A program made the translations under genes and the position numbers. This document shows, in pieces, positions 1 through 21,549 of a stretch of 32,988 nucleotides of DNA (its first letter is position 1; each line of letters starts with the position of its first letter). The DNA is from an uncultured virus (IMG/VR IMGVR_UViG_3300025398_000011) (taxonomy: Duplodnaviria; Heunggongvirae; Uroviricota; Caudoviricetes): IMG/VR virus record IMGVR_UViG_3300025398_000011. The stretch is one strand, 5' to 3'. Below the pieces are notes generated by a model. The model was not told the DNA's origin. It saw nothing but the letters and a program-made list of their open reading frames with translations, and made no database searches.

Positions 1-65
1 CAGAAGTGGTACTAGGATTACAGAACGCACAGCACATGATTCGTGGAGAGAGGGCTATTGCATGA
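1..65 (+). CDS. 3' end of an upstream gene (partial, product unknown)
   Basis: Open frame ...EVVLGLQNAQHMIRGERAIA* ends at TGA 63-65 and overlaps the next ATG (ATGA coupling). Confidence 0.55.
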   Translation, partial: EVVLGLQNAQHMIRGERAIA

Positions 66-2181: not shown

Positions 2182-2188
2182 TTTAAGG

Positions 2189-2347: not shown

Positions 2348-2356
2348 AACTAATGT
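2328..2356 (+). promoter_or_regulatory. sigma70/SigA-type promoter
   Basis: TTGACA (2328-2333), 17 nt spacer, TAATGT (2351-2356), upstream of ORF 2379. Confidence 0.7.
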
Positions 2357-2378
2357 AGTGCTTCTTAGGGGGTACTAA

Positions 2379-3253: not shown

Positions 3254-3266
3254 CAAAGGAAAAATA

Positions 3267-3929: not shown

Positions 3930-3941
3930 AAACACATAGCT

Positions 3942-3981
3942 GTTAGAGACCGGTGCCCCCCTTCCATCGGTCTCTAACTTT
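3942..3981 (+). terminator. hairpin, probable intrinsic terminator
   Basis: GTTAGAGACCG / CGGTCTCTAAC inverted repeat followed by TTT, between SSB and polA. Confidence 0.55.
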
Positions 3982-3995
3982 ATAGGGGACAACAC

Positions 3996-5981
3996 TTGAA
4001 TATTATTACGACTAAAGATCAGTTAGATGAGATGGTTGCTTACTATCTTAAGCAAGATGCGTTTGCATTTGACGTAGAAACTGTTGGTCAACATAGAGGT
4101 ATACCTGCAGTTAACGAAGTGCTTTGGATTTCTTTTGCTACCCGCGGTCGCGGTGATGTTATTCCTATGGGCCACCCTAATGGTGAGTTCTTAGAATCAA
4201 TCAAGCCTTTAACAGGTCAGGGTCAGAAGCGTGTAGATCAAGGATTACCCGCCAGAGACTACGACTACTCACGTGATAAGAAGAAGCACGTGAAGAAGTT
4301 TGGCCCAGCACCTAAACAACTATTCCCAGCAGAGGTCTTTGAAGCGCTTAAGCCATTGATGTTTAATGAAGATATCTTAACTATCGGTCACAACTTAATC
4401 TTTGACCTATGCTCCGTGGCTAAACACTACGATGGAGTAATCCCTGCAGGTCCTTACTTTGATACCTTGATCGGCTCCTTCTTATATGACAGCCGCAACA
4501 GTGGCAAGCTTGGCTTAGATGATTGCCTTAAGCGTGACCTAGGGTTCAGCATGGAGAAGGGCATTGGCCACAAGGTTGAAGAGTATTCTTTTGATGAAGT
4601 CGCCAAGTACTCATACCTAGATTCTAAGTACACATTTCTACTGTGGCAGGTTGTTACGCCTAAGTTGATAGATGCTGAGGTTGATAAGGTTATGGATCTT
4701 GAGATGAGTCTCTTAAAGGTTCTATGCCAGATGAAACTTACAGGCGCGGCTATTGACGTTAACTTATTAAAGGATCTACACACTAAACTTGAAACAGAGA
4801 TAGAACAAGTAAAGACAAAGATTTACGGCATTGCCGGTAAGGTCTTTAACCTTAACTCCAATGCTGAAAAGCAAGAACTTCTTTACGGCCCAGTATCAGA
4901 GGGCAATCGTGGTATTAAGCCAACAATCCTTACGGGTAAAGGTGAGAAGACCCAGCCTGATAAGCGCACTTACTCTGACTACTCAGTATCTGCAGAGGCA
5001 CTTGAGGCTCACCCAGATGATGAACTTGTAAGAGCCATGCTTGAGTACGCGGAAATCAACAAGCTTCTTAGCACCTACATCATCCCTTACATTGGCGGGG
5101 AAGTAGTTAAGTCTGTCAATGGTAAAGAGAAGATTGAAGAGCGTGAGAGCATGCTCATCAATGGCAAGATCTATGGAGACTTTAAGCCTTGGGGTACAGA
5201 GACAGGTCGTTTCTCTAGCTCCAACCCTAACCTTCAGAACATTCCTGCGCCTAACGATAAGGTGCCAGAGGAGAAGAACTACGGCAAGATGATTCGAGAC
5301 CTGTTCTATGCTCCAGAAGGTTACAAGTTAGTAGTGGCTGACTACTCCCAGATTGAACCGCGTATTATTGCCTCTATGTCAGGTGATCCTATTATGCTTG
5401 AAAATTATCGCATTGGCGGAGATATTTACACTACCGTTGGTAACACCATGGGAGTAGACCGCAAGGCTGGTAAGGTCTTAGTTCTAGCCATTGCCTATGG
5501 CGTAGGGCCAGATAAGATCTCGCGCCAGATCGGTTGTACTATCCAGGAGGCTAAGACCCTTCTCACAGACTTTGCCGCCAAGTTCCCTTCCGTAGACCTG
5601 TACCGCGCCAAGGTTATTGGGGTAGCCCGTAATACTGGCTATGTATCCACCATCCTAAAGCGCCGCAGATACCTGCCGGATATTAAGTCCAAGGTGCCTG
5701 CCTTTAGGTCTAGCGCCGAGCGCCAGGCCTTCAACACGCGTATCCAGGGGTCTGCCGCAGACATAATCAAACTTGCTATGATTAGGGCCTACGAGAAGAT
5801 ACCTGCCGAGGCAAGAATTATCTTAACCGTGCACGATGAAATCGTGACCTTGACTCCAGACTCTGTAGTAGATCAAACACGCGAAGCTATCCGCGAGGCT
5901 ATGGAAGAGATTTACTTTCTAGATGTCCCACTGATCGCTGACATTAAAGTGGTTCAGAAATGGGGTGATGCTAAAGGATGA
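3996..5981 (+). CDS. polA: DNA polymerase family A with 3'-5' exonuclease domain
   Basis: ExoI FDVET, ExoII GHNLIFDL, TGRFSSSNPNLQNIP, motif A ADYSQIE, motif B RKAGK...YG, motif C VHDE. Confidence 0.96.
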   Translation: MNIITTKDQLDEMVAYYLKQDAFAFDVETVGQHRGIPAVNEVLWISFATRGRGDVIPMGHPNGEFLESIKPLTGQGQKRVDQGLPARDYDYSRDKKKHVKKFGPAPKQLFPAEVFEALKPLMFNEDILTIGHNLIFDLCSVAKHYDGVIPAGPYFDTLIGSFLYDSRNSGKLGLDDCLKRDLGFSMEKGIGHKVEEYSFDEVAKYSYLDSKYTFLLWQVVTPKLIDAEVDKVMDLEMSLLKVLCQMKLTGAAIDVNLLKDLHTKLETEIEQVKTKIYGIAGKVFNLNSNAEKQELLYGPVSEGNRGIKPTILTGKGEKTQPDKRTYSDYSVSAEALEAHPDDELVRAMLEYAEINKLLSTYIIPYIGGEVVKSVNGKEKIEERESMLINGKIYGDFKPWGTETGRFSSSNPNLQNIPAPNDKVPEEKNYGKMIRDLFYAPEGYKLVVADYSQIEPRIIASMSGDPIMLENYRIGGDIYTTVGNTMGVDRKAGKVLVLAIAYGVGPDKISRQIGCTIQEAKTLLTDFAAKFPSVDLYRAKVIGVARNTGYVSTILKRRRYLPDIKSKVPAFRSSAERQAFNTRIQGSAADIIKLAMIRAYEKIPAEARIILTVHDEIVTLTPDSVVDQTREAIREAMEEIYFLDVPLIADIKVVQKWGDAKG

Positions 5982-6445
5982 GCATCTTCAGAAGAAATAA
6001 AAAAGATGAGTTTGAGATTACTACTCAAGAGGTTCCGCTTAGTACGGTTTACCGTTGGTACCTCTATGACACCGAACTTGTAGACAACATCAATGACCTT
6101 GCTGAAATGGTAGGGCTTAGTCGCATTAGTGAAGAGGGCGAGAGTAAAGAACTAGAAGACAGCGGAGATAGAGTAAAAGCTGTCGCCCCACTCTTTCCAT
6201 TCTTAGAGTCTATTGCGGATATCAGCGCCAAATCTTTGGTAGCGCTTCATCTAGCTGAGGCAATAAATTCAGATGATATGGAAGACCATGAGTTAGAAAA
6301 GCATAGTGATGAGATACTGGCTGTCTATAAAGCGGTAGCACTATCTACTTTAATGGGCGCCTTTTCAATTGGTCTTCACTTAGGTATGATTGAAACTAAT
6401 ACAGTAGGAGCAGATGTTCTTGACTTTGGAGGAATAGATGAGTAA
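5978..6445 (+). CDS. hypothetical protein
   Basis: 155 aa acidic ORF, ATGA-coupled to polA. Confidence 0.75.
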   Translation: MSIFRRNKKDEFEITTQEVPLSTVYRWYLYDTELVDNINDLAEMVGLSRISEEGESKELEDSGDRVKAVAPLFPFLESIADISAKSLVALHLAEAINSDDMEDHELEKHSDEILAVYKAVALSTLMGAFSIGLHLGMIETNTVGADVLDFGGIDE

Positions 6446-6821
6446 CTCAGATTGGTTCTCACGCAAATTAGGTAACCCAGTACCTCAGCAACCGCAGCAG
6501 GCCCCACAGTATGCTGCACCACAGCCTGCTACCTATGCACAACCACAACAGCCGCAGTATCCACCCTCACAACAGGCAACCCCTCAAGCACCTCGTTGCC
6601 CAGGGTGCGGCAGTGGTAACTATGGCAGTGTTCAGGGAGCAACACCAAGGTGCTACGATTGCGGCTATCCACTTCAACAGTCAGGTAGTGGTCTAGGTAA
6701 AGGAATTATTACCCCTGGTCAGTCTTCAGCAGGACCAGCAACACCAGCACGCCAGATACCTACAGGTACTTTTAATGGCACTAAGCCCGCAATCGGGGCA
6801 GACGGAGGGTTCTTAGGATGA
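6438..6821 (+). CDS. Gln/Pro-rich protein with zinc ribbon
   Basis: CPGC...CYDC pair flanked by Q/P-rich and G-rich low-complexity segments. Confidence 0.7.
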   Translation: MSNSDWFSRKLGNPVPQQPQQAPQYAAPQPATYAQPQQPQYPPSQQATPQAPRCPGCGSGNYGSVQGATPRCYDCGYPLQQSGSGLGKGIITPGQSSAGPATPARQIPTGTFNGTKPAIGADGGFLG

Positions 6822-7870
6822 GCACATTAACAGGCGATCTAGCAAAAGTATTTAGTGCAATCAACAAGAAGATGGGCGATGACACCATCGTTCTTGGTTC
6901 AGATATTACCCAAACTGGTAGCCGTCTAACAACGGGTTCAGTTGCGATAGACGTTGCTTTAGGTGGCGGATGGCCGTCTAATCAGTGGCACGAAATTATT
7001 GGAGAGGCAAGCAATGGCAAGACCGCGCTTGCTCTTAAGACTATTGCTGCTAATCAACGTCGCGATCCAGAGTTTACGACTGTATGGATTGCAGCAGAAG
7101 AGTGGGTGCCAGGTTACGCAGAGATGTGCGGCGTAGATGTTTCCCGCGTATATGTAGTGTCTACAAATATCATGGAGGAAGCGTATGAAGCGGTCATTCG
7201 GATCGTGGAAAGTAAAGCTATTGATTGCATTGTTCTTGACTCACTTCCTGCTCTGGTGCCTGGAGCAGAGGACGAGAAGGAAATGGAAGAAGCAACAGTA
7301 GGGCGCGGAGCGCTTCTTACTAACAAGTTCTTCCGTAAGGTAGGCAAGGCATCTAAGAGGTCGTTAATCCGCCCAGAGCGCCCTTTCATCGGCATCATTA
7401 TCAATCAGTGGCGGTCAAAGGTTGGCGTAATGTATGGCGATCCTCGAACTACTCCGGGGGGTCTAGGCAAGGACTACGCCTTCTTTACCCGCATGGAGGT
7501 CCGCCGCGATGAATGGATTGAGGCTGGAACTGGGCAAGATAAGCGCAAAGTAGGCCAGTCAATTAAGGTCAGAGTCATTAAGAATAAGTCAGCCGCCCCA
7601 GGCCAAATCGCTATTGTAGACTTCTATTTTGCTAATGGCGGGGACATTGATGCGGGTCAGTTTGACTTTGCCAAAGAGATTGTAGCTATAGGAAAACTTA
7701 ATAAGGTCATTGTCAGAGCAGGTGCCTACTATCGTTATGCCGGTAGACAATGGCAAGGCGAAGATGCTATCCTAGCGTCCATACGGGAAGAGATTGACCT
7801 TCGAGAAACCCTTGAACGCGATGTACTAGACTCTATTAAAGCAGGCTCTAAGTACGCGCATGAAGAGTGA
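6818..7870 (+). CDS. recA: RecA/UvsX-like recombinase
   Basis: TGS..D.ALGGG.P, Walker A GEASNGKT, IVLDS, IINQ.R..VGVMYGDP.TTPGG, KNK.A.P. Confidence 0.95.
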   Translation: MSTLTGDLAKVFSAINKKMGDDTIVLGSDITQTGSRLTTGSVAIDVALGGGWPSNQWHEIIGEASNGKTALALKTIAANQRRDPEFTTVWIAAEEWVPGYAEMCGVDVSRVYVVSTNIMEEAYEAVIRIVESKAIDCIVLDSLPALVPGAEDEKEMEEATVGRGALLTNKFFRKVGKASKRSLIRPERPFIGIIINQWRSKVGVMYGDPRTTPGGLGKDYAFFTRMEVRRDEWIEAGTGQDKRKVGQSIKVRVIKNKSAAPGQIAIVDFYFANGGDIDAGQFDFAKEIVAIGKLNKVIVRAGAYYRYAGRQWQGEDAILASIREEIDLRETLERDVLDSIKAGSKYAHEE

Positions 7871-8240
7871 GGGTTTAAAGAAATCACAGAAGCATGAGGC
7901 ACGACTAGCAGGAGTTCTAGACGGGAAAGTCAACGCTGGAAGCGGAGCTTTCTGGAGTCGTAAAGGTGATGTGCGAAGTACCGACATTCTATTAGAACAT
8001 AAGTACACGGGCAAAGCCTCCTTTACTGTTAAAGCCGCAGTTCTGGAAAAGATTGTCAAGGAAGCAATACTTGAGAGTCGTATGCCTGTGCTAGGTGTCA
8101 GCCTCAATAATGAGAACTACGTATTGTTAACCGAAGACGACTTCCTGGAAATGCGCCAGAGCTTCCAGGAGCATAAAACTTGTACGACGAAGACTTCGGA
8201 CCAGAACCTTGGCGATATAGAGCAAAATGCCGAGGGATGA
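7860..8240 (+). CDS. PD-(D/E)XK nuclease, putative Holliday junction resolvase
   Basis: E in N-terminal helix, SGA, KGDV...LLEHK catalytic pattern. Confidence 0.7.
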   Translation: MKSEGLKKSQKHEARLAGVLDGKVNAGSGAFWSRKGDVRSTDILLEHKYTGKASFTVKAAVLEKIVKEAILESRMPVLGVSLNNENYVLLTEDDFLEMRQSFQEHKTCTTKTSDQNLGDIEQNAEG

Positions 8241-8497
8241 ATACCAACACTTGGTACCCGCCGCGCGATAAAGATCAATACAAAGACATCGCCGATGTAG
8301 CCAAGGCTGTTTGCTACGGCAAAGATGGTTTGCCTGAGTGCCCAGTGCGTAAAGAGTGTTTACTTTACGCAGAAGAGATGGAAGATACCCACGGTATATG
8401 GGGCGGCATGAGCCACCGCGAACGTAATGCGCTTAAGCGTAAAGCAACACGTTCAGGCATGACTCTAAAGGAATGGGTATTAACTAAAGATATATGA
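8180..8497 (+). CDS. whiB: WhiB-family Fe-S transcription factor
   Basis: W...A.C, AKAVC...CPV...C and GIWGG.S..ER signature; AGGAG SD before TTG start. Confidence 0.92.
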   Translation: MYDEDFGPEPWRYRAKCRGMNTNTWYPPRDKDQYKDIADVAKAVCYGKDGLPECPVRKECLLYAEEMEDTHGIWGGMSHRERNALKRKATRSGMTLKEWVLTKDI

Positions 8498-8509
8498 TAA
8501 GTTACCCGC

Positions 8510-9340
8510 ATGAGTCAGCTAAAGAAATTTGTAGATGTGGGTAAGAAAAACACCCGTGTTCTAGGGTCATTAGAGCGCCATCTAATGGCCAAGCCAAAAG
8601 ATAGATCACGCAGAACCGACGTCTTACATCCGTCAGAGATGGTCGGTTCTGATTGGTGTCACCGCGCTTCTTACTTTCAGCTGCAAGGCGAAGAGCCTAT
8701 TAGTACTCGCACCAACAGCCTACGACTAGCCTCAGTATTTGCTGAAGGCCACGCTATCCATGCTAAATGGCAAAGCTGGCTGCAAGACATGGGCGTTCTA
8801 TTTGGCAAATGGTATTGCTATGAATGTGAAGAGTTTTTCTGGGGCGGTGCGGACTGTCACGAAGGTCCCCTTGCTTACAGAGAAGTGCCGTTATTCTACG
8901 AGCCCTTGCGAATATACGGACACTCAGATGGTTGGTTGACAGGGCTTGGCGACCCAATGATGCTAGAAATCAAGTCTATCGGCGTAGGCACCCTGCGCTG
9001 GGAAGCTCCCGAGCTTTTGATAGAGCATAACAATGACTTTGATAAAGCATGGAAGGCTATTAACGCGCCTTTTATGAAGCACATAATGCAGGTGCAGATC
9101 TACATGAAGTTGGCTGAACTGCTTAACTATGAAAACTACCCACAAGAAGCAGTAATCATCTATGAGAACAAAGCCAATCAAGAGGCTAAAGAGTTTGTAG
9201 TAAAGAAAAGTGACTTCGGCATCTCGCATTTGTTTGACGCAGCCGCTATGATTGTAGAAGCAATAAAGACTAACACGCCACCACCATGCAACCTAAGCAC
9301 AGATGGTTGCGCTAAATGTAAGGGGTATACAAATGGTTAA
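8510..9340 (+). CDS. Cas4/RecB-like exonuclease
   Basis: HPS...C.R, G..IH, DG...LEIKS, H..QVQIY and C-terminal PPC...C..C cluster. Confidence 0.8.
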   Translation: MSQLKKFVDVGKKNTRVLGSLERHLMAKPKDRSRRTDVLHPSEMVGSDWCHRASYFQLQGEEPISTRTNSLRLASVFAEGHAIHAKWQSWLQDMGVLFGKWYCYECEEFFWGGADCHEGPLAYREVPLFYEPLRIYGHSDGWLTGLGDPMMLEIKSIGVGTLRWEAPELLIEHNNDFDKAWKAINAPFMKHIMQVQIYMKLAELLNYENYPQEAVIIYENKANQEAKEFVVKKSDFGISHLFDAAAMIVEAIKTNTPPPCNLSTDGCAKCKGYTNG

Positions 9341-9809
9341 TATAGTTGCCACAGGTATTAGTGAAGACCTATTAAAGGTACTAGAGTCCCAAGGCTTGCC
9401 AGTTAAGCGCAGCCTAGACATTGAGATTAAGCCTTTTCCAGCAGATATTACTGGCGTAGATGACCAGCAGCTCATGGAGATGGCTCGCTCCTATATGGAG
9501 AACTACAACTTCCTACTTACACAGGTAGCCTGCGCTGAGTTGGCGGTTACTGAGGCTGAGAACTATTACAAGCAGGAAGAAGCCAAGCTTCTTATCCAGA
9601 AGTCTTCAGACCCAAAGACCAAAGCCACAACCATCAAGGCTATGATTCTTATCGATCCAGATATGCAAAAACTATCTGCCGATCGCATGCACGCTGAGGC
9701 TTACCACAAGTTACTAAAGACAACCATGGACAACCTAGAGCGGTACTACCAGCTAACTAGCCGTGAACTCACCCGTCGAACATCTGTTCTAAAGGCGCGC
9801 GGTTACTAA
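9333..9809 (+). CDS. hypothetical helical protein, possibly a UvsY-like recombination mediator
   Basis: Start reassigned to ATG 9333; all-helical composition ending ...TSRELTRR; lies in the recombination cluster. Confidence 0.45.
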   Translation: MVNIVATGISEDLLKVLESQGLPVKRSLDIEIKPFPADITGVDDQQLMEMARSYMENYNFLLTQVACAELAVTEAENYYKQEEAKLLIQKSSDPKTKATTIKAMILIDPDMQKLSADRMHAEAYHKLLKTTMDNLERYYQLTSRELTRRTSVLKARGY

Positions 9810-10345
9810 TGAAGGTCTTTAGCAAGGGCACTGTAGATGGCCCGGTCTATCTAGGCATAGACCAGTCATATAGTGGGTTTGCTATAACCGCGTTCAAGGA
9901 TCAGGACAACTACTACACAGAGGTTTACAAGTCTGACAAGCGCGGCATAGACCGCCTGCGGGATATCCAAGCCCATGTCATGAACTGGCTCCATGAGTTT
10001 GATGAGATAAAGGATGTTGCCATAGAGGGTTACGCCTTTGGCTCACAGATGGCTAACATGCTTGGGGAGCTGGGCGGCATGGTCAAGTTGACCCTCCTAG
10101 AGTTTGGGATCTACCCGCTTATAGTTCCGCCTACTAACCTCAAGAAGTACACATGCGGCAAGGGCACAGGGGTATCTAAAAGCCAGATGCTCATGTATGC
10201 CTACAAGAACTGGGACGCCGAGTTTAATGACGACAACGCTGCCGACTCCTATGCCCTAGCCCACCTAGTATCAGGGTCAGGTAAACGTACATACGAAAAG
10301 GAAGTCTATGCTAAACTTCAGGATCCAAAGTTTAGGGAGCGGTAG
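9809..10345 (+). CDS. ruvC: RuvC-like Holliday junction resolvase
   Basis: YLGIDQS, VAIEGY, ELGG, P..LKK..G.G...K, DDNAADS acidic tetrad. Confidence 0.85.
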   Translation: MKVFSKGTVDGPVYLGIDQSYSGFAITAFKDQDNYYTEVYKSDKRGIDRLRDIQAHVMNWLHEFDEIKDVAIEGYAFGSQMANMLGELGGMVKLTLLEFGIYPLIVPPTNLKKYTCGKGTGVSKSQMLMYAYKNWDAEFNDDNAADSYALAHLVSGSGKRTYEKEVYAKLQDPKFRER

Positions 10346-10893
10346 TGACCACCATAGTAGCCGTCCAATACAAGGACCGTTGTGTATTTGGCGCCGATAA
10401 CCAGGTAACTGATGGCAGTGGCCGCATTTATAGGCACAAAGACATGGCTAAAATCAGCCAAAAAGGGCACTATTTAATTGCTGGAAGCGGCGAGGTTCAA
10501 CCTTGCGATGTAGCCCAGCATATCTGGAAGCCACCAGCCGTAACCGCCAGTGACCGCAAAGACATCTATCATTTTGTTATCACCAAGGTCATGCCTTCCC
10601 TGCGAGAAGCCCTAAAAACCAACGGGTACAACTTTGAAGAAGAACGGGACAAATCGGACACAGGACCGAGGTTTAATTTTCTCCTTGCAGTTTGCGGAGA
10701 AGTCTTTGATGTATCAGATGACCTGTCTGTATGCCGTACAGATAGCGGGCTATACGGAGTAGGTAATGGGGCAGCCTATGCTCTAGGCGCCCTTCATGCC
10801 GGCGCGTCTATTCTAGAATCCTTAAAGATTGCGGCATCATTAGACGCATATACTTCAGGACCATTTATTGAAGTAGAGCAGCGTAAAGGATAG
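10345..10893 (+). CDS. HslV/proteasome-beta-like Ntn threonine protease
   Basis: N-terminal TTI after Met, GADNQVT, conserved K, IAGSG, GVGNG..YALGAL, D..TSGP. Confidence 0.8.
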   Translation: MTTIVAVQYKDRCVFGADNQVTDGSGRIYRHKDMAKISQKGHYLIAGSGEVQPCDVAQHIWKPPAVTASDRKDIYHFVITKVMPSLREALKTNGYNFEEERDKSDTGPRFNFLLAVCGEVFDVSDDLSVCRTDSGLYGVGNGAAYALGALHAGASILESLKIAASLDAYTSGPFIEVEQRKG

Positions 10894-10895
10894 AG

Positions 10896-11063
10896 ATGCC
10901 ATCATACGATTTTAAGTGCGACACCTGTGGCTCGGTTATAGAGATCCAGCGCTCATTTGATGAAGAGGGTTCACCTATGTGTACCTCATGCAATTCAACT
11001 ATGACCAGAGTTTGGCAGGCTACGCCAGCTCACTTTAAAGGAGGAGGCTGGGGCGGACAATGA
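10896..11063 (+). CDS. FmdB-like zinc-ribbon protein, 55 aa, not in ORF track
   Basis: MPSYDFKCDTCG...CTSC...M.RV...HFKGGGW pattern. Confidence 0.85.
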   Translation: MPSYDFKCDTCGSVIEIQRSFDEEGSPMCTSCNSTMTRVWQATPAHFKGGGWGGQ

Positions 11064-11302
11064 GTAAGACACAGAATAAAAGACAAGAGCGCATCCGTGA
11101 AGCCGCGCACTTTGTATCAGAGCGCCGTACTATTCAATTGCAAATTTTAGAGCAGAACTATGAGATGGGCGTCAAGCTTTTCTTAGATCAAAAGGACAGC
11201 CTTTCATCAGAAGAGGTTGAGCAGATAGAAAAGATGATGACAGAACAAAGAGCGGCATTGGACAAGTTACATGAACAAGTCAATCCGCGAACTGAAGCCT
11301 GA
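11060..11302 (+). CDS. hypothetical coiled-coil protein
   Basis: 80 aa ORF with ATGA coupling. Confidence 0.65.
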   Translation: MSKTQNKRQERIREAAHFVSERRTIQLQILEQNYEMGVKLFLDQKDSLSSEEVEQIEKMMTEQRAALDKLHEQVNPRTEA

Positions 11303-11483
11303 TTACACAGGCACCATGGATTACGCAGATCAAATCTGCCATGAGTGCCCCAAGTGTGAGTCAAGCATCTGGTTAATCAAAGCCTCCTTTGAAGATTACG
11401 AGATATCCCAGTACTTCATTGACATGGAGTGCGCTATCTGTGGCACATACGCCAAAGCCCCTACCCCAATAGACCGACCATAA
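11271..11483 (+). CDS. small zinc-finger protein
   Basis: CPKC...CAIC, C-terminal APTP.D. Confidence 0.75.
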   Translation: MNKSIRELKPDYTGTMDYADQICHECPKCESSIWLIKASFEDYEISQYFIDMECAICGTYAKAPTPIDRP

Positions 11484-11692
11484 TGTGGTCATGGGTACTA
11501 GCCTGTGTAGGAGTCACAGGCATTTACTTTGTTGGCCGCAAAACTATCTGGGGCTGGTTTGTTCTACTGTTTAATGAATGCCTATGGATGGGGTACGCAA
11601 TAGATACCCACCAGTACGGTTTTATATTTGCATCCCTAGCCTACGCCGCTACTTATGTGCGGTCATACCTCCATTGGAAACAAGACGTTTAA
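11483..11692 (+). CDS. small PnuC-like membrane protein (3 TM)
   Basis: Start reassigned to ATG 11483 (TAATG overlap); G.....K.IWGW....N...W..Y.....YG pattern. Confidence 0.65.
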   Translation: MWSWVLACVGVTGIYFVGRKTIWGWFVLLFNECLWMGYAIDTHQYGFIFASLAYAATYVRSYLHWKQDV

Positions 11693-11766
11693 CCTTATTT
11701 TGTCTAAATTACCCTTCATACTTTATGCCACGGGGAACCACAATACGTAAACCCAAGGAGCATAAA

Positions 11767-12039
11767 TTGTCAGAAGAACAGGAGCCATTGCGCGTAGGCG
11801 CAGGCAGCAACCCTCAGTCCGTAGCCTCAGCGGTTGCCCACGCTATTTATGAAAAGCGTGAGGTAAAAATCCGTGCAGTAGGCGCAGGCGCAGTCAATCA
11901 GGCCGTAAAAGCCATTGCTATCGCCCGTGGATATACAGCCCCAAGAGGTATAGATCTAGTCTGTATCCCAGGCTTTGCCAGCATTAAGAGCCATGACGGT
12001 GACATCAGTGCCATCGTATTCCAGGTTATTGCTAATTAA
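11767..12039 (+). CDS. spoVS: SpoVS-family protein
   Basis: LRV...SNP.SVA.AVA...V.IRAVGAGAVNQAVKAIAIARG..AP.GIDL.CIP.F; TTG start after AAGGAG. Confidence 0.88.
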   Translation: MSEEQEPLRVGAGSNPQSVASAVAHAIYEKREVKIRAVGAGAVNQAVKAIAIARGYTAPRGIDLVCIPGFASIKSHDGDISAIVFQVIAN

Positions 12040-12101
12040 GCCTGTATTAAGCGCGTAAGTACCGTACATTTATAAGAACAATTCCTCGGCCAAGGAGAAC
12101 C

Positions 12102-12434
12102 ATGAAAGCTTCATCTAAGAAGAACCCAGCACCAATTGCGCCAGTAGACGCAAAGAAGACCAGCGTTGACTTCACCAACGCTTCAGCTGCACCTTCAGCT
12201 AACACTAAGTTGATGCCAAAGAAGAACACAGCAGCTGGCGACCCATACAAGATGGCTAAGCCATCACGCACATTCGTAAAGGCTACATCCGGGGCCCGTT
12301 ACGGTGTTCGCGTTAAGTTCCAGAAGGCAGAAGCTCACGAAGCAGGCGCTACACAGGGTAACGGCCGCCTACTTCCATCAGCCATCAAGCGTTCTTCTCA
12401 GAACTTCAGCGCAGGCATGGGTGACCATAACTAA
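12102..12434 (+). CDS. basic low-complexity hypothetical protein
   Basis: AAGGAG SD; K/A/S/P-rich 110 aa. Confidence 0.75.
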   Translation: MKASSKKNPAPIAPVDAKKTSVDFTNASAAPSANTKLMPKKNTAAGDPYKMAKPSRTFVKATSGARYGVRVKFQKAEAHEAGATQGNGRLLPSAIKRSSQNFSAGMGDHN

Positions 12435-12443
12435 TAGCTAGAT

Positions 12444-12484
12444 AAATAGCCCCCGGGACTCTAGTCCGCGGGGGTTATTTTTTG
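12444..12484 (+). terminator. intrinsic terminator
   Basis: AATAGCCCCCG...CGGGGGTTATT stem followed by a T run. Confidence 0.8.
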
Positions 12485-12485
12485 C

Positions 12486-12548
12486 TATAATTAATGCAGG
12501 ACGCCGAACGGGTCCTAACTAACCTATATCGTCTAAGGAGATATAACA
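12486..12548 (+). promoter_or_regulatory. hsp20 promoter (-10) and structured 5' leader (RNA thermometer candidate)
   Basis: TATAAT 12486-12491; hairpin AGGAC/GTCCT; second hairpin TATATC-G-TCT / GGA-GATATA covering the SD. Confidence 0.55.
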
Positions 12549-13055
12549 ATGGCTTCAGGCTACCCAACACGTAGCCCGCATGAAATGTGGGCAACTAAAG
12601 AACCAACAAAGACAGTCACAGTCAAGACCCCAGCTCAGATTGTTACAGAGCTAACCAATCACCTAGTTAACCGAGGAATCGGCTTCAATACTCATGCCGC
12701 TTTCTTCAATGAACTGGTCAATCAATTCGATACACGATCAACCTATCCTCCGTACGACATCCTTTCAGCCGGAGAGAACAAGTACCTTATCCGCCTTGCG
12801 CTTGCAGGGTTCTCTAAGGAAGATCTGGAGATCACCTTCAAGGATCAGGTCCTTACTATTGAGGGCAAGAAGGATGACGAATCTATTGATGAATACTTCC
12901 ACAAGGGTATTGCGGCTCGCGCATTTAAGCAGTCCTTCCCATTAGCTGAGTACGTAACAGTAGAAGGCGCGGAGATGAAAGACGGCATCTTAACTGTAAG
13001 ACTGGAGAGAGAAATTCCAGAAGAGTTAAAGCCAAAAACAATTAAGATCAAGTAA
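12549..13055 (+). CDS. small heat-shock protein (Hsp20/IbpA-like)
   Basis: YPPYDI, LALAGF, YFHKGIA.R.F...F.LAE.V.V.GA.MKDGIL, C-terminal PKTIKI. Confidence 0.95.
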   Translation: MASGYPTRSPHEMWATKEPTKTVTVKTPAQIVTELTNHLVNRGIGFNTHAAFFNELVNQFDTRSTYPPYDILSAGENKYLIRLALAGFSKEDLEITFKDQVLTIEGKKDDESIDEYFHKGIAARAFKQSFPLAEYVTVEGAEMKDGILTVRLEREIPEELKPKTIKIK

Positions 13056-13068
13056 CTCCTTGAGCATC

Positions 13069-13097
13069 AGCCCCCGTCAAATTGGCGGGGGTTTTTG
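13069..13097 (+). terminator. intrinsic terminator
   Basis: GCCCCCGTCAA-A-TTGGCGGGGGT followed by TTTT. Confidence 0.85.
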
Positions 13098-13161
13098 CTT
13101 GATTTGTCAGACTTTTATGTTAGTCTTATCGTGTCGCAGCTTGACGAACACAAGGAGAGAC

Positions 13162-13395
13162 ATGTTAGAAGTGCTAAATAAGCACCTAGATGGGGTTTCA
13201 TTGAGCGGTTGTGTAGTTGCCCAGTGGATTTCTACTCTAGGTAAAGATGAACAGAAATTATTTGAGCAAATAAAAGCAAACAATACAGCTGTAAAGGTCG
13301 CACATCTATTCCAAGATCTAAATAAAGATACTGAACTCCCATTTAAACTGACCGCCTTCCGCTCCCACCTTAGAGGATATTGCACATGTCAATAA
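13162..13395 (+). CDS. small Cys/His protein (C...H...CxC)
   Basis: Start reassigned to ATG 13162 after AAGGAG; GC.V..W...HLRGYCTC. Confidence 0.7.
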   Translation: MLEVLNKHLDGVSLSGCVVAQWISTLGKDEQKLFEQIKANNTAVKVAHLFQDLNKDTELPFKLTAFRSHLRGYCTCQ

Positions 13396-14402
13396 AGACC
13401 AGCCTACTTGACGTATTAGAGAACGCAGTTACTACTACCAATACTGATTGGGCATGGCCACCAATCCAGCAGGCAAAGCCAACTGTTATCAAGCCCGCAG
13501 AGTATAAAGAGCGCCAAGCAAGTAAAAATGGTTTTAAGTTATTTGTATTTGTTCCAGATCCACAGATCGGCTATCGTAAGTATGAAGATGGAACACTAGA
13601 TCCGTTTCACGATGAGGCCGCAATTGATGTCCACTTTCAACTACTAGCTTATTTAGAAAAGCGTTATGGCGTAGATGAGATTGTGCACCTTGGAGATTAT
13701 CTAGACCTACCAACAATGGGTAAATATGCACAGGAAGAAATGTTTGCGCATACAGTTCAGCCAGCCCTTGATTATGGTCACGCACTACTAGCAAAGCAAC
13801 GCGCTACCTGCCCTACTGCAAAGATCACATTGCTAGAGGGCAACCACGATTGCCGTATGCAAAAGTACGTAACTATGAACGCCATGGCATCTAAGGGTAT
13901 TAAGCGCGCTAACGCTGCCCCAGATGAGTGGCCAGTTATGACAGTCCAATACCTACTACGTTTAGAGGAGTTGAACATCAACTATGTGGGCGCGTATCCG
14001 GCTGGCGAGTACTGGATTACTCCTCACCTTCGTGCTATTCATGGCACTACCGTTCGGTCTAATGGCTCTACTGCATCTGCTTACGTCAATAAGAATCCGC
14101 ATGTTTCTACAGTCTTTGGGCATGCCCATCGACAAGAACTACAGTATAAAACTGTAGCCAATGGTGACGGCCCTATCCGCAGCGTGAGCGCCAGCCCTGG
14201 TTGCCTATGCCGTGTAGATGGCGCAGTTCCTTCCTACGGTTCTGGTCTCAATGACAACGGTCGTCCAGTAAAGCACTGGGAAGACTGGCAGCAGGGAATC
14301 ATGATCGGTTGGGTTCATGACGAGGGCCGCTTTACACTACAGCCTATTCACATCATGGATGGTGAAGCCCTGTATGAGGGAAAGCAGTTTAAGGCCAAGT
14401 AA
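13386..14402 (+). CDS. calcineurin-like metallophosphoesterase
   Basis: PDPQ, LGDYLD, GNHD, IHG and GHAH motifs. Confidence 0.9.
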   Translation: MSIKTSLLDVLENAVTTTNTDWAWPPIQQAKPTVIKPAEYKERQASKNGFKLFVFVPDPQIGYRKYEDGTLDPFHDEAAIDVHFQLLAYLEKRYGVDEIVHLGDYLDLPTMGKYAQEEMFAHTVQPALDYGHALLAKQRATCPTAKITLLEGNHDCRMQKYVTMNAMASKGIKRANAAPDEWPVMTVQYLLRLEELNINYVGAYPAGEYWITPHLRAIHGTTVRSNGSTASAYVNKNPHVSTVFGHAHRQELQYKTVANGDGPIRSVSASPGCLCRVDGAVPSYGSGLNDNGRPVKHWEDWQQGIMIGWVHDEGRFTLQPIHIMDGEALYEGKQFKAK

Positions 14403-14429
14403 TTAAGTAATTACGCGTATCCTTGTGGT

Positions 14430-14964
14430 ATGGCCAACCCTTCCCCGCATCAAAACGTACAGAATCTCGGAGCTTCCGGGATGTACGGCACCAATACCGT
14501 TTACGGTGGCGGCGGCGTACCAGTAGCCAGAAGTGAATTGGATTTCCTCCGTCTTGGCGTGGGTCGGGCCCCGCAAGCGGAGTATCCCTGACGGCTACCT
14601 AGGCACAATCCGTACACGCCGCGATGATCGTGGGCGTGATACATCGGATAACGTACTTAACGCACTCAAGGTACGAGTAGGACAGCGTTCGTACCAGCGC
14701 GGTGTTCACCGTGGAGAAAGAATTGACGTTCAAGACTATTACTATCCAGAAGGTCTTGATGCAATGCGCGGAATAAGACGCCAAATGAAAGGCGTTAGAG
14801 ACGGTAATGTCATCCGCGTCCAGCGCGGGGTAGAGAACGCTATGGCGGCCCCCGCGCCTCATCTTCCTAATGATGGTAAGGCAAATATGAGAAGTACATC
14901 GCCACTATCATTAGATAGTCGCCGTGTAGACCAGATGGCCCGCATGAGAACACCTTGGAGATAA
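14430..14964 (+). CDS. hypothetical protein split by a +1 frameshift at CCC-TGA (14586-14591)
   Basis: Leaderless ATG 14430 opens a 53-aa frame ending AEYP-stop; the +1 frame continues DGYLGTIRTRRDD to 14964; the track's GTG 14533 start is unconvincing. Confidence 0.65.
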
Positions 14965-14965
14965 G

Positions 14966-15208
14966 ATGAACACAGACGAAAGCCAATTCCCGCAGCCTGC
15001 TCGCCCACACTCAATTAATAAAAGCACCACTATGACTATGAAGCATGGCACCGCTGAGTTAAACGTAAACGCAAGCGCTAGCACCCTACACGTTCCAGGC
15101 GCCGAACCCCTTGCTAAAACAAATCCAATGACTATGACCGCTAAAGGCAAAGCAAAGGATGTTGGAGTACTCCTACGCCATATTAAGAACAGCAGCCCAA
15201 AGAACTAA
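14966..15208 (+). CDS. hypothetical small protein
   Basis: GGAG SD, TAATG coupling to the next gene. Confidence 0.65.
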   Translation: MNTDESQFPQPARPHSINKSTTMTMKHGTAELNVNASASTLHVPGAEPLAKTNPMTMTAKGKAKDVGVLLRHIKNSSPKN

Positions 15209-15567
15209 TGACTAAATTCGCAGATGGAGTCTACGGACGTAGACCGTGGGTAGCGCCGCCCGAGGCCGCCAATCCCCCGCAAGATTACGTCGGGCCATTT
15301 CAGTCTAATCAAGAACGCCTTCTAAGTCAGTCGATGGCCGCATGGACAATGGGACGCGAAGACATCCAAGAGTATGTGCGGCCACCGCTCCCACAGGTAA
15401 AGCTATTTCCATCCCGTTTTGGTTACACTGAGCATGAGATCACCATTGAAGACATTGCACAGATGCCACGCAAGACCGCTACAACCCAGCGTGTAGAGTC
15501 TGACTTCAGCCAGACCCCTAACACTCAGGAATCAACCAGCACCAACTCACTAGGAGGAACAATCTAA
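15208..15567 (+). CDS. hypothetical protein
   Basis: TAATG overlaps on both sides. Confidence 0.7.
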   Translation: MTKFADGVYGRRPWVAPPEAANPPQDYVGPFQSNQERLLSQSMAAWTMGREDIQEYVRPPLPQVKLFPSRFGYTEHEITIEDIAQMPRKTATTQRVESDFSQTPNTQESTSTNSLGGTI

Positions 15568-15815
15568 TGGGCCGTAATAACAACGATTTTAACGCAGGAA
15601 AGACCCCCGAAGGGCCAGCACAGCAGGTAACTTGGACTGGGCAATCTGGCGATAGCTATTCTTTTAAAGTACCTCCAGGAAGCTCTAAGAAAGATGCTGG
15701 AAAAACTATTGCTCACTACACAAGTGTTGACCGCAGTTACAAGAACGCTGGAATCAACGATCAGACTGTAGAAGAGCCGGTAAAGGGTTCAGTGCGCTGG
15801 AATAAAAATGACTAA
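15567..15815 (+). CDS. hypothetical small protein
   Basis: AGGAGG SD, TAATG overlap. Confidence 0.7.
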   Translation: MGRNNNDFNAGKTPEGPAQQVTWTGQSGDSYSFKVPPGSSKKDAGKTIAHYTSVDRSYKNAGINDQTVEEPVKGSVRWNKND

Positions 15816-16041
15816 CGACCCAGGTTTATACACCGATAGCACAGGCGACGGCATGGCTGGGGCTATGGACGTCAGCCTTCAAACCCAGCGTGACCTTAGC
15901 AAGACCATTTATAACGGAGATAAGGCCTGTAAAGCCTGTGGCGCGCGTATTGACCCCGTACAATCATTGATGAACCAAGAGCACTGCCCATCCTGCTCCC
16001 GTAGAATGAAGCAGTCACACGTGAAAGGCGGCATGGCATGA
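15808..16041 (+). CDS. small zinc-finger protein
   Basis: CKAC...CPSC. Confidence 0.7.
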   Translation: MTNDPGLYTDSTGDGMAGAMDVSLQTQRDLSKTIYNGDKACKACGARIDPVQSLMNQEHCPSCSRRMKQSHVKGGMA

Positions 16042-16247
16042 CCGTTAATAAGTTTCGTTCTGAGAACGCGTCCTTAGAAGAGGGCGCCACAGACGGCAAG
16101 TACCGTAAGCGCCGTCCAAACACAGAGGTAGCCGCTGGACAGGGTGACGAACTAGTCGTCAAGAACCGCGCTAGCCTCCACCCGTACTTCAACTATGGTT
16201 TCATCAACTCTGAAGACACTTCTAAGGTTAATCCAGCAGGTAACTAA
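16038..16247 (+). CDS. hypothetical small protein
   Basis: ATGA and TAATG coupling. Confidence 0.7.
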   Translation: MTVNKFRSENASLEEGATDGKYRKRRPNTEVAAGQGDELVVKNRASLHPYFNYGFINSEDTSKVNPAGN

Positions 16248-16447
16248 TGGCTGAAGACCGCGCTTACGATCCTGCACGTAAACCTAATCTAGGGTTACCC
16301 AACTTCGTGCAGGATAAATTAGTTGCAAAGCCAGCCGTTAAAATAACAAAAGTTACAGACCTAGGTACTGTGGGTCCTGAATCAGAAGGTAAACCAGAAA
16401 TAGTTTTCCACCGAGGCAGAGGTAAAAAAGGAAGGTCAAACGACTAA
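16247..16447 (+). CDS. hypothetical small basic protein
   Basis: TAATG coupling; begins MAEDRAYDPAR. Confidence 0.65.
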   Translation: MAEDRAYDPARKPNLGLPNFVQDKLVAKPAVKITKVTDLGTVGPESEGKPEIVFHRGRGKKGRSND

Positions 16448-16448
16448 C

Positions 16449-16811
16449 ATGGCTAAAGATAGAGCAAGAGACGATCGCCGTTCTGTAGGTTCATTTGAAA
16501 AGATGAAAGGCGCACTTGGTAAAGCCGCTGGCTGGACAAGGCACACAGATCCAGACTTTGGAGCATATGCAATTAAAGCAGATGAACAGGGTAATGCTAA
16601 GTTGCCTGCAAATTATCGTGTAGGTAAAGACGCTACTTTTCCAATTGGATATTCGTCAGCTACTAGATACAACTCTGTAGCCGCCATTGAGCGCACTCGT
16701 GGAGGGCAGCCTAGTGAGCCAGAAAAGCGTGCTGTAGAGAACAAAAACAAGATGATGAAGGGCCCTAGCGATCCTTCTGTAGTTAAGATTAATACAAATC
16801 CGGTTAAGTAA
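16449..16811 (+). CDS. hypothetical basic protein
   Basis: Begins MAKDRARDDRR; follows the previous stop by 1 nt. Confidence 0.7.
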   Translation: MAKDRARDDRRSVGSFEKMKGALGKAAGWTRHTDPDFGAYAIKADEQGNAKLPANYRVGKDATFPIGYSSATRYNSVAAIERTRGGQPSEPEKRAVENKNKMMKGPSDPSVVKINTNPVK

Positions 16812-17179
16812 TGGGACGTCCACTATCAGGTAAGACTGCGCCTCAAGGCCGCATGTCCCTCATTGACCGCGTAGCGGGTGGTTCATACACACCACCAGCA
16901 CCGCAGCCTTTGGCTATGCCACGTCAATTAGAAACTGTAAGTGCCCCTGAAAAAAATAACGAAGTTAAGCCCGCTGCTGAGGCAGTAGCCGCCCCTAAGA
17001 AGGCCGCCGAGAAGCCTGTAAAGAAGCCTGCTGAAAAGAAGACTATTGTTAGTGAGGCTGATGAAGTAGAGGCGCACAAGAAGAAGTTGGCGCAGGAAAA
17101 AATCGACAAAGATATTTTGGCGTACAAGCAGAAGAAGGCACAAGAGGCCATCGCTGCAAGATTAAAGAACAAGAAGTAA
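16811..17179 (+). CDS. Lys/Ala/Pro-rich hypothetical protein
   Basis: APKKAAEKPVKKPAEKK histone-like segment; TAATG coupling. Confidence 0.7.
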   Translation: MGRPLSGKTAPQGRMSLIDRVAGGSYTPPAPQPLAMPRQLETVSAPEKNNEVKPAAEAVAAPKKAAEKPVKKPAEKKTIVSEADEVEAHKKKLAQEKIDKDILAYKQKKAQEAIAARLKNKK

Positions 17180-19534: not shown

Positions 19535-20092
19535 ATGACTACTACTGTATGGACAACTGAGGCTAAAGTCGCGCGCAACAAGAAGAACCTTACCGGTCAC
19601 TCTAAAGCAAAAGCGTTAGGCCTGCGATACTGCCCTAAATGCGAACTGGCTAAAGAGCATGAATGTTTTGAGTTTCCTTTGGGCTCCAGGGTTCAAAAAG
19701 CTTGGTGCAAGGACTGTCGTTCGGTAAAAAAGTGCCCTAAATGTCACAAGATTTTGCCTAGAGCAACTCACTATCAGCAACTAAAAACGGGGTACAAGTT
19801 AAATCATGCCTACTGTTTAGACTGTGATAGGTTGTACCAAAGAGAATGGAAGTTAAAATCTAACTATTTGATGTCTCAAGAGGAGTACGCAATAATGCTT
19901 GAGGCGCAAGGTAAAAAGTGCTATTTGTGTAAATCAAGTAAGAAGTTAGTCGTAGACCATGACCACAATACAGGTAAAGTGCGTGGGCTATTGTGTGACC
20001 TATGTAACCGAGGGCTAGGTTACTTTAAAGATAACCCAGATGTTCTTATAGCGGCGGCCAAATATGTAAAGCAGGTGACATTATCCGTATAG
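19535..20092 (+). mobile_element. free-standing endonuclease VII-type homing endonuclease
   Basis: N-terminal CxxC repeats; Y..ML..QG.KC..C...LVVDHDH.TG.VRGLLC..CN.GLG.F.DN; own AT-rich promoter (TATACT 19522-19527). Confidence 0.88.
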
Positions 20093-21549
20093 TGTTTTTA
20101 GGTTGCGAAGTCCCCAGCAACCGTACCCTTTTAGAATCCACGGGGGCCACGCATGTCGGGGTCAGCTTTTGGGGACTTACCAAGCGCGGTTTACCCCAGA
20201 ATAAGGCCTATCTACTGAAGAATTACTTCAAAGACCATTTTTACATCTATGTATACCCCGGCATTCCCAAAACTGAAAAGCTCACAGCTGATGAGCTGAT
20301 CGAGTTTGCGGCTGAGTACGAGGACTTTATTGCAAACAACATTGACCGCATCAATATGTTCAGCGAAATAGCTGCTGAAGACGATACTTTTGTAGCTCAG
20401 CAGCGCAAGTCAGCTTGGTCTCAAGTACCGCCCAGTAAGTTCCTGCCCGCTTGGAACCCTGAATCTGGATTTGCTGAGCTTAATCTACTCGGAAGTAACT
20501 ACCTAGACATAGCCATCCCTGGAGAGGCTTTGGAAGAGAACCACCAGCTCCTAACTGTCACACGAACACTTGTTCGGAAGCACGGCACCCGTTTTCATAT
20601 CCTTGGTTCGGCTAAGCCCGATACTCTACGGCAGATTGCCGCTGAGACGGCCAGCACTATGTCGTGGCTATCACCTATGAGGAACGGTGAAACTATCGTC
20701 TGGGACGGTACAAAACTGGTACGCTACCCAGCCCGTATGAAAGATCAGGCTCGCCCTAGATACAGGAACGCCTACCTCAAAGCAGGGTTAGATGTAGATA
20801 AGATTCTGGAAGATGATGATAAGGAAGTCTGCCGTCTGGCGGTCTGGTCTTACCAGCAATATGAAGCGAGGTTAAACGGAATGACCCCAGACGATAATGA
20901 GAAGTTATCAGATAATAACAACTTACAGGTGAGTGAAGAAAGTGGAGAAACTACCCTCGCTAATAGTGATAAGAAGGGTGTTTCTGCGCGGAAGTTAGAG
21001 CCAAGAACTCCTGAAGAAATGGGCAATTTACCTGTCTTTGGATACGATATGAAGCAGGTTGTTGAGAGCGAAAATGGGGTAGAAGTATTCAAAGAAGTCC
21101 CTGTCGTTCAGTCCCAATCAGTCAGCCTTCGGGTCTGTGATTCCTGCTATGTAGCCGCTACCTGCCCTGCATTTAAGCCTCAATCTGTATGTGCATTTAA
21201 GTTACCAGTAGAGGTTAAGACCAAAGATCAACTCAAGTCCCTAATTAATGCAATCATTGAAATGCAGGGTCAAAGGGTCGCTTTTATGCGTTTTACTGAA
21301 GAAATGAATGGTGGATACGCTGACCCCAACGTATCAAAAGAGATAGACCGACTGTTCAAATTGATTAAGACTACTAAGGAATTGGATGACTCTAGAGAGT
21401 TCATTAGGATGACTGTTGAGCGCCAAGGTAGTGCAGGAGTCCTCTCCTCTATCTTCGGTGACAAGGCAAATGTCCTCAAAGAACTACCCGCAAATGGGCT
21501 GGATGAGAACCAAACTACCGAGATAATCAAAGACTTAACCGCCGAGTAG
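20092..21549 (+). CDS. two-domain protein: TGT/DpdA-like barrel plus C-terminal Cys4/helical domain
   Basis: FHILG...STMSW resembles the HxLG...DSxSW segment of TGT-like proteins; CDSC.....CP.F.....C cluster after a low-complexity linker. Confidence 0.45.
   Translation: MFLGCEVPSNRTLLESTGATHVGVSFWGLTKRGLPQNKAYLLKNYFKDHFYIYVYPGIPKTEKLTADELIEFAAEYEDFIANNIDRINMFSEIAAEDDTFVAQQRKSAWSQVPPSKFLPAWNPESGFAELNLLGSNYLDIAIPGEALEENHQLLTVTRTLVRKHGTRFHILGSAKPDTLRQIAAETASTMSWLSPMRNGETIVWDGTKLVRYPARMKDQARPRYRNAYLKAGLDVDKILEDDDKEVCRLAVWSYQQYEARLNGMTPDDNEKLSDNNNLQVSEESGETTLANSDKKGVSARKLEPRTPEEMGNLPVFGYDMKQVVESENGVEVFKEVPVVQSQSVSLRVCDSCYVAATCPAFKPQSVCAFKLPVEVKTKDQLKSLINAIIEMQGQRVAFMRFTEEMNGGYADPNVSKEIDRLFKLIKTTKELDDSREFIRMTVERQGSAGVLSSIFGDKANVLKELPANGLDENQTTEIIKDLTAE

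Follow-up and report, generated by a model that had tools for sequence, protein, structure and literature searches.

A probable prfB-like programmed +1 frameshift at a proline slip codon in an early gene of uncultured, putatively actinobacterial phages

The +1 frameshift signal of prfB, the gene for release factor 2 (RF2), is described as combining a UGA stop and a C as the next base, TGAC being a weak stop, with a pyrimidine run of four that spans the slip codon and the first base of that stop, and with a Shine-Dalgarno (SD)-like element located 6 nt ahead of the stop (PMC12421855). A +1 shift at CCC_UGA is known from the tail-shaft (tsh) genes of the Listeria phages PSA, A118 and A500, where it proceeds by slippage of tRNA-Pro in the P site (PMC5009743), and CCC_UGA at the end of E. 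coli pheL shifts at 15% in E. coli K-12 (PMC5009743, PMC3082878). CCU_UGA shifts at about one-third of the CCC_UGA level, the same tRNA reading both codons (PMC3082878), and compensatory frameshifting over a “savior” indel is described as a class by Atkins et al. 2016 (PMC5009743). We focus here on a gene that, judging from its sequence and that of its homologues, is very probably decoded by a programmed +1 frameshift of the prfB type, with the Pro codon CCC or CCU as the slip codon. The gene occupies positions 14430..14964 (+) of a 32,988-nt stretch of DNA from an uncultured member of the Caudoviricetes (IMG/VR IMGVR_UViG_3300025398_000011), the whole of which is called the window below. An initial annotation of the window, made from the letters alone, had named both prfB and Listeria phage PSA as precedents; its anatomy of the prfB cassette matches the account in PMC12421855, and the CCC_UGA shift in PSA that in PMC5009743. 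No publication on a freshwater-actinophage or prfB-like CCC_UGA or CCU_UGA case was found in the full-text literature, a coverage outside which subscription journals fall.

The gene encodes a 177-aa protein in two frames. The 0 frame (14430-14588) starts at ATG 14430 and belongs to an open reading frame (ORF; 14430..14591, +) of 53 codons plus TGA, which without a shift would yield a 53-aa peptide ending in QAEYP; this product is also present as a called protein (P0241) in the public protein library. The downstream part (14590..14964, +), open throughout in the ORF list, begins with GAC in the +1 frame and comprises 124 codons (to 14961) and a TAA stop (14962-64). The two are joined at the cassette GCG GAG TAT CCC TGA C GGC (14577..14595, +), in which GAG occupies 14580-82, TAT 14583-85, CCC 14586-88, TGA 14589-91 and the final C of the stop context 14592. 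An SD-like GGAG (14579..14582, +) lies 3 nt 5′ of the slip codon and 6 nt 5′ of the stop, the spacing found in prfB. The putative slippery sequence CCC_U (14586..14589, +) would permit re-pairing from CCC (14586-88) to CCU (14587-89), and the 0-frame UGA is followed by C (14589..14592, +). Taking CCCT as one step gives the 177-aa product (P0001) with the junction AEYP|DGYLG; the fusion sequence across the junction is AEYPDGYLGTIR and the tryptic junction peptide APQAEYPDGYLGTIR. The initial annotation had located the site and this fusion exactly, in letters, in coordinates and in the +1 frame open to 14964. Compared with in-frame homologues, the window sequence is longer here by a single base, TAT CC(C)T GAC. 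One match to the motif GGAGNNNCCYTGAC exists in the window, where 0.03 would be expected by chance, and 3 of 100 shuffles contained at least one match.

Set beside the prfB signal AGGGGG-TAT-CTT-TGA-C, the phage site has a purine-rich SD-like element that ends 3 nt before the slip codon and may pair with 16S rRNA, a four-pyrimidine run permitting +1 re-pairing, and an in-frame UGA directly 3′ of the slip codon, the last in the window and in all carriers, as we call the homologues interrupted at this site. It further shares the C after the stop, the use of GAC as the first +1 codon (22 of 22 distinct carriers and 25 of 25 carriers from metagenomes), and the absence of a need for RNA structure. 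UAU is the spacer and E-site codon of E. coli prfB. The differences concern the slip codon, which is Pro CCC or CCU and not the Leu CUU of the tRNA-Leu slippery sequence CTT_T, and the SD-like element, which is only GGAG (GGAA in a few carriers), unlike AGGGGG. The product, moreover, is no release factor, so that the autoregulatory loop by which RF2 feeds back on its own shift is absent. Whereas the prfB signal is hyper-conserved according to PMC12421855, the phage signal is polymorphic, with about 4% carriers, and the presumed phage hosts, Actinomycetota, are described in the same source as being without the prfB signal.

The Listeria tsh sites are likewise phage-gene shift sites at which CCC is followed by UGA and tRNA-Pro slips in the P site. 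They differ in that the shift there lengthens a structural protein at its C terminus, with both products in use; their context is (AAA) CCC_UGA, and the account of them in PMC5009743 mentions, in the part that concerns the sites, no SD element. The window site, unlike that of tsh, falls at codon 53 of a probably non-structural gene, has a 53-aa peptide as its non-shift product, and sits in a replication/early module. E. coli pheL shares CCC_UGA with its Pro-stop pause, but the pheL shift was judged by its authors not to be utilised, whereas the phage +1 frame holds 124 conserved, selected codons. With the savior-indel class the phage site shares the coexistence of indel and in-frame alleles and the restoration of the protein by ribosomal slippage; it differs in having dedicated stimulators whose synonymous sites have stayed conserved despite long divergence. 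The site, a CCC_UGA in a phage ORF with a conserved +1 continuation, may on these grounds be classed as an SD-stimulated +1 frameshift at a slip codon before UGA-C. As it has another slip codon and lies in another gene, it falls outside the prfB gene family.

By this mechanism, ribosomes would start at ATG 14430, probably on a leaderless mRNA, read 53 codons, and pause when UAU with tRNA-Tyr occupies the E site, CCC with peptidyl-tRNA-Pro the P site and UGA-C the A site. GGAG (14579-82), 3 nt 5′ of CCC, would pair with the anti-SD end of 16S rRNA. Release at Pro-UGA-C would be slow and the short SD spacing would strain the P-site pairing, so that tRNA-Pro would re-pair one base forward on CCU, admitting GAC to the A site and allowing the +1 frame to be read to TAA 14962-64, which would give the 177-aa protein. 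Ribosomes that do not slip would release the 53-aa peptide, and competition between RF2 and slippage, if the shift is RF2 dependent, would set the share of the two products.

The initial annotation had regarded a single-C insertion, by assembly error or by mutation, as an equally simple explanation. Assembly error was rejected, since CCCTGA is present in independent Logan contigs of three runs, X1 (depth 25.9), X7 (17.2) and X8 (8.4), with no differing letters and no gaps across the site, and in diverged carriers from many lake samples. X1 may be the run from which the window comes, X7 and X8 stem from other samples, and Logan data are assembled contigs rather than raw reads, so minor variants could escape. 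The one-base insertion relative to in-frame relatives is real, but it is maintained. The caveat of the initial annotation and the run of three C residues could be taken to favour a group of further explanations: an artefact of sequencing or assembly, decoding of TGA as an amino acid, slippage during transcription, or a suppressor tRNA-Pro that reads a quadruplet. We consider this group exceedingly unlikely, although a suppressor tRNA of the host is conceivable. Ten of the 39 window genes end in TGA, which is therefore a stop. For slippage by RNA polymerase, a run of three C residues is too short. A suppressor tRNA-Pro would have to read two different quadruplets, CCCU and CCUU. A phage-encoded suppressor was rejected for two carrier genomes: the complete genome G002 (95,920 bp) has zero tRNA genes, and G003 has only tRNA-Asn and tRNA-Arg, neither of them containing a tRNA-Pro gene. 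The window itself contains no tRNA gene.

The same interruption recurs in other genomes. A scan of IMG/VR for GARTAYCCCTGAYGGNTAY retrieved 30 stretches, 21 of them homologues that split between frames 0 and +1 exactly at residue 53 and nine unrelated; the most diverged of these carriers are 43-48% identical in the downstream part. A pattern allowing any inserted base, GCNGARTAYCCNNGAYGGNTAY, matched 35 IMG/VR stretches, comprising eight unrelated ones and 27 homologues, of which 21 read CCC_TGA_C and six CCT_TGA_C; CGA, AGA and GGA in place of TGA were found in none of the 27. A metagenome scan with third positions free, GCNGARTAYCCNTGAYGGNTAY, gave 101 stretches, and here the 25 homologues (GCG 25/25, GAG 23/25, CCC 16, CCT 9, GAC 25/25) contrast with 76 unrelated matches, which show every codon variant. 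All 27 IMG/VR and 25 metagenome carriers read GCG-GAR-TAY-CCY-TGA-C, with TGAC in every one; the two sets overlap, some contigs being the same records, and the metagenome pattern fixed TGA, which put other stops outside its reach, whereas the generic IMG/VR pattern left the inserted base free. Patterns for other lesions at this site retrieved no homologues, neither among the 17 stretches that matched a two-base insertion nor among the two that matched a one-base deletion. One of the 27, G001, is 100% identical to window positions 1-16140 and is not independent support. The 51 interrupted loci, a number that includes repeat fetches of the same contigs, all retain the ATG and are free of further lesions. 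Those that are complete end in a single stop and encode fusions of 174-182 aa; three are truncated where the fetched stretch ends. No break at any other place was seen in the 189 in-frame loci.

These observations bear on whether the window allele is simply a gene that a genuine mutation has recently disabled and that is no longer decoded productively. Such a history would be in keeping with a nearest relative that is in frame and with the little divergence in the window's own lineage, G001 being identical and L365 differing across the downstream 309 nt at three synonymous and zero non-synonymous sites. However, there is no second lesion, the cassette is letter for letter that of 26 other IMG/VR contigs, and a random inactivating indel would not fall on this one codon with TGA, C and GGAG in place, the motif being expected 0.03 times per window. 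We therefore regard inactivation as very improbable.

Most of the family is uninterrupted. A word-indexed protein search yielded 1333 homologues, the 120 listed being 162-179 aa long and the best 97% identical over all 177 residues; full-length single-frame homologues measure 174-179 aa. In a library of 1.84 billion representatives, clustering at 50% identity divides the family into 181 clusters. AEYPDGYLG is an invariant block in the homologue alignment, the family's best-conserved motif, and is contiguous in all in-frame relatives. Among 80 IMG/VR loci chosen by protein similarity, 70 read EYPDGY in frame (TAY CCN GAY GGN), eight are single-frame with other residues there, and two carry the shift, namely L035 (the same as G001) and L079 (83-90% protein identity). 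The in-frame pattern occurs in an estimated ~700 IMG/VR stretches, and 111 of 120 loci returned were confirmed homologues. The initial annotation had posed retention of CCC-TGA and an in-frame CCN-GAY as alternatives; both occur, most homologues reading CCN GAY and a diverged minority keeping the cassette. In the protein library, gene callers split the recoded gene into a 53-aa ORF and one of ~125-160 aa.

Other variants were seen at the same spot. A distant homologue (L423:1468-1515) reads TGG CCT TAG CTT GAC, that is, an in-frame TAG and one extra codon between Pro and Asp, which could reflect readthrough, a pseudogene or an error. Two called proteins, P0209 and P0221, have an out-of-frame N-terminus ending in RSI(H/R)SS before DGYLG, and in two others, P0247 and P0260, the 0 frame continues as EYPQM(A/V)TSER; as judged from this library, which holds no DNA, the four hint at other interrupted alleles at the DGYLG spot. 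When the DNA of P0209 and P0221 was sought in IMG/VR, 80 more distant loci were obtained, none with the shift and none matching.

Selection on the downstream frame was assessed with a tree of 133 distinct complete genes (111 in-frame, 18 CCC and 4 CCT; IQ-TREE quick, LG+G4), which contains well-supported carrier-only clades. Within these clades the ratio of non-synonymous to synonymous substitutions per site (dN/dS) in the +1-frame part is 0.03-0.21 at dS 0.5-1.8 (Nei-Gojobori); between the window and the carrier L339, dS is 0.96 and dN 0.042 in the downstream part. Substitution ratios of this kind indicate that the downstream +1 frame is under strong purifying selection. In five of the 22 distinct carriers the +1 frame is open for just 27 nt upstream of GAC, and those 27 nt contain no ATG, GTG or TTG, so the selected downstream codons can be reached there only from the upstream frame. 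The latter result speaks against a split gene, in which two proteins would be made and the downstream part translated by internal initiation or termination-reinitiation. Candidate starts for such a protein do exist in the window, where GTG 14533 and a TTG precede the site in the +1 frame, and a C-terminal part without the N-terminal 40 residues can evidently exist, as in the 122-136-aa subfamily P0155, P0157 and P0185. But no start codon stands at ribosome-binding-site distance after GGAG, and the motif that a split would sever, AEYPDGYLG, is the most conserved of the family and contiguous in all in-frame relatives; we consider a split gene highly unlikely.

The three proteins of the short subfamily start ~10 codons before AEYPDGYLG and lack the glycine-rich N-terminal 40 residues, which places the frameshift site near a natural domain boundary.

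Codon choice within the cassette distinguishes the 22 distinct carriers from the 111 in-frame relatives. GCG at position −3 is found in 22/22 carriers versus 15/111 in-frame genes, GAG (−2) in 19/22 versus 35/111, TAT (−1) in 20/22 versus 79/111, GAC (+1) in 22/22 versus 36/111 and GGC (+2) in 18/22 versus 22/111, whereas the control codon TAT (+3) occurs in 11/22 and 55/111, respectively. The slip codon is CCC in 18 carriers and CCT in four, compared with CCC in six and CCT in 24 of the in-frame genes; neither CCA nor CCG occurs in any of the 22 carriers, although CCA is the commonest Pro codon among in-frame relatives (78/111). In eight independent pairs on well-supported (starred) branches, GCGGAG was associated with the shift in 6.5 against 0.0 (median p 0.0156), with p 0.031 for GCG alone, 0.0625 for GAG and 0.125 for GAC (4.0 with, 0 against); the control TAT (+3) gave 2.0 with and 1.9 against. 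Outside the cassette, none of 47 degenerate columns with an invariant amino acid is single-codon across the 22 carriers, whereas GCG (−3) and GAC (+1) are. All six cassette codons are invariant in clade A (6/6 versus a 39% background) and in clade B (versus 52%). By these codon counts the synonymous sites of the cassette are frozen and the signal itself appears to be under selection, and freezing over a dS of ~1 argues that the signal is selected rather than merely tolerated. The prfB-style programmed shift proposed in the initial annotation is thus favoured by the diverged carriers, the frozen synonymous sites and the selected downstream frame.

The serious rival to a selected signal is an indel that is merely tolerated, of the savior or compensated kind. 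On this view a single base was duplicated in TAT CCT GAC, in a context that happens to allow low-level +1 slippage; this would suffice for a protein required in small amounts, and the allele would drift in and out of the population with no regulatory role. It invokes the same mechanism and differs only on whether the signal is selected. Several findings favour it or weigh against a programmed shift. Carriers are a minority, ~4% of the family (27 contigs versus ~700 in-frame IMG/VR stretches), and are scattered on the gene tree with at least 14 state changes, or eight independent pairs when well-supported branches are counted; such a state is labile, and it may simply be tolerated without bringing any advantage. 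The closest relative of the window, L003, is in frame (98% protein and 87% DNA identity), and in-frame alleles one deletion away exist in L004 (GCGGAATATCCTGAC) and L196 (GCGGAGTATCCCGAC). Run X11 (2012, freshwater) also holds an in-frame TAT CCT GAC allele that is identical over 290 nt downstream. Common descent of the shift within carrier-only clades is a parsimony argument, and the cassette might also be transferred by recombination. In three of the 22 carriers the weaker GCGGAA is present.

Further points against a programmed shift concern decoding. Slippage, SD pairing, efficiency and RF2 dependence are all deduced from sequence, and the RNA runs X23 and X24 contained just 4% of sampled words. 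A prfB frameshift is reported in none of 2,658 Actinomycetota genomes (PMC12421855, 2025), and the B. subtilis prfB motif is described there as shifting at 6.6 ± 4.4% in M. smegmatis versus 52.7 ± 2.8% in B. subtilis. In an actinobacterial host the shift efficiency may therefore be low, which would fit a tolerated indel, and compensatory frameshifting is an established class (PMC5009743). Against toleration stand the enrichment of GCG, GAG and GAC relative to sister lineages and the carrier-only clades that persist to dS 0.5-1.8 with a frozen cassette, from which it follows that selection maintains the stimulators once the indel is present. On balance we consider a merely tolerated indel improbable, and a programmed +1 shift remains the preferred reading.

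The X11 contig, which spans only part of the stretch, is identical to window positions 14587-14876 and has an upstream loose end of GCGGAATAT followed by CCTGAC. It thus represents an in-frame allele whose upstream half differs from that of the window, as recombination in or close to the site might produce. The nearest in-frame relatives, at 65-93% DNA identity, are too far away for a gain or loss event to be caught directly.

The start of the gene appears to be leaderless. A −10-like hexamer TATCCT (TANNNT; 14418..14423, +) lies at −12..−7 of ATG 14430, and TANNNT stands at exactly this distance from the ATG in 78 of the 133 distinct homologues; no SD-like motif precedes ATG 14430 in the window sequence. 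Both features fit the leaderless first gene of an operon and suggest that the transcript begins with the A of the ATG. Such promoters and leaderless mRNAs are common in actinobacteria. Immediately 3′ of the recoded gene (14966-17179, +) lie eight small, lysine/arginine-rich ORFs of 66-122 aa, tightly packed or overlapping, for none of which, among those scanned, a family was found; they are probably co-transcribed with the recoded gene.

The 177-aa protein matched no family in Pfam, PHROGs, NCBIfam or PADLOC; a sequence profile search of the PDB gave E values of only 0.26 and 0.72, and the Atlas yielded no usable match. AlphaFold2 with 66 in-frame homologues returned a low-confidence model with a mean predicted local distance difference test score of 55.3 and a predicted template modelling score of 0.24, and the protein is basic and predicted to be mostly disordered. 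Nor was conserved RNA structure detected at the frameshift site: with 22 carriers, RNAalifold predicted nothing downstream and a structure of just −5.2 upstream, and the minimum-free-energy z-scores are −0.6 and −1.1 (mononucleotide shuffles).

The window corresponds to the replication/early module of a tailed phage. Among its products are an SNF2 helicase, a family-A DNA polymerase, RecA, a Cas4-like exonuclease, a class II ribonucleotide reductase, a CobS-like AAA protein, a deoxynucleoside monophosphate kinase, endonuclease VII and an HNH endonuclease, with a metallophosphoesterase at 13380-14402. An Hsp20 small heat-shock protein is encoded at 12549-13055 (+), and SpoVS at 11578-12039 (+; Pfam E 1.7e-28), where the ORF as listed has a long N-terminal extension and the true start is probably later. 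A homologue of the DpdA-like queuine tRNA-ribosyltransferases (transglycosylases) at 20092-21549 (+; PHROG 887, E 3.4e-48) hints, by homology, at 7-deazaguanine modification of the phage DNA.

A WhiB-family transcription factor is encoded at 8180-8497 (+; 59.9 bits, cut-off 23.6). The same search on 14 control genomes gave a match in Corynebacterium (C. glutamicum) only, and related complete genomes of ~95.8 kb all contain WhiB (4/4, with 1-3 copies each). No DNA match for the region was found among 50,697 phage records. By protein, the closest cultured phages are the Streptomyces phages BRock, GiJojo, LuckySocke, Alone3 and pSt2308 (113-116 kb); the product of the recoded gene is 42% identical to its nearest cultured-phage relatives, GiJojo gp168 among them, and aligns across the junction, and the DNA polymerase is 37-38% identical to those of the nearest cultured Streptomyces phages. 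Use of whiB as a marker for freshwater actinophages has been described (PMC10914622). Taken together, WhiB, the Streptomyces phage relatives and the marker status of whiB make a freshwater actinobacterium the most likely host, and the phage an actinophage. SD-like motifs precede 19 of the 39 window genes, from which it follows that the host ribosomes use SD pairing.

What the cassette does for the phage can be stated only tentatively. The initial annotation had suggested, as possible purposes, a response to RF2 availability or a set short:long product ratio. It is conceivable, though in our view doubtful, that the cassette is a selected regulatory switch, through which RF2 and the termination capacity of the host would govern how much is made from the leaderless gene that opens an early operon, with the 53-aa peptide as a second functional product; the toggling of alleles, with at least 8-14 transitions and two slip codons, would then reflect balancing selection on dose, for example versus host defence. 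If so, freshwater actinophages would use an RF2-type signal in a phylum that lost the prfB frameshift.

The complete RF2-type signal is best known from prfB, and a comparable one would have arisen here in an unrelated phage gene. The unusual features are a proline slip codon in two versions, a natural polymorphism between in-frame and interrupted alleles, and probable hosts without the prfB signal. Because gene callers split the recoded gene, annotation pipelines mislabel it. Matched in-frame and interrupted alleles across hundreds of genomes provide a natural comparative series for each element of the cassette. With these phages it can also be tested if ribosomes of actinobacteria, or at least of their low-GC freshwater lineages, are able to exploit a signal of this type efficiently, or if a shift of a few percent is enough.

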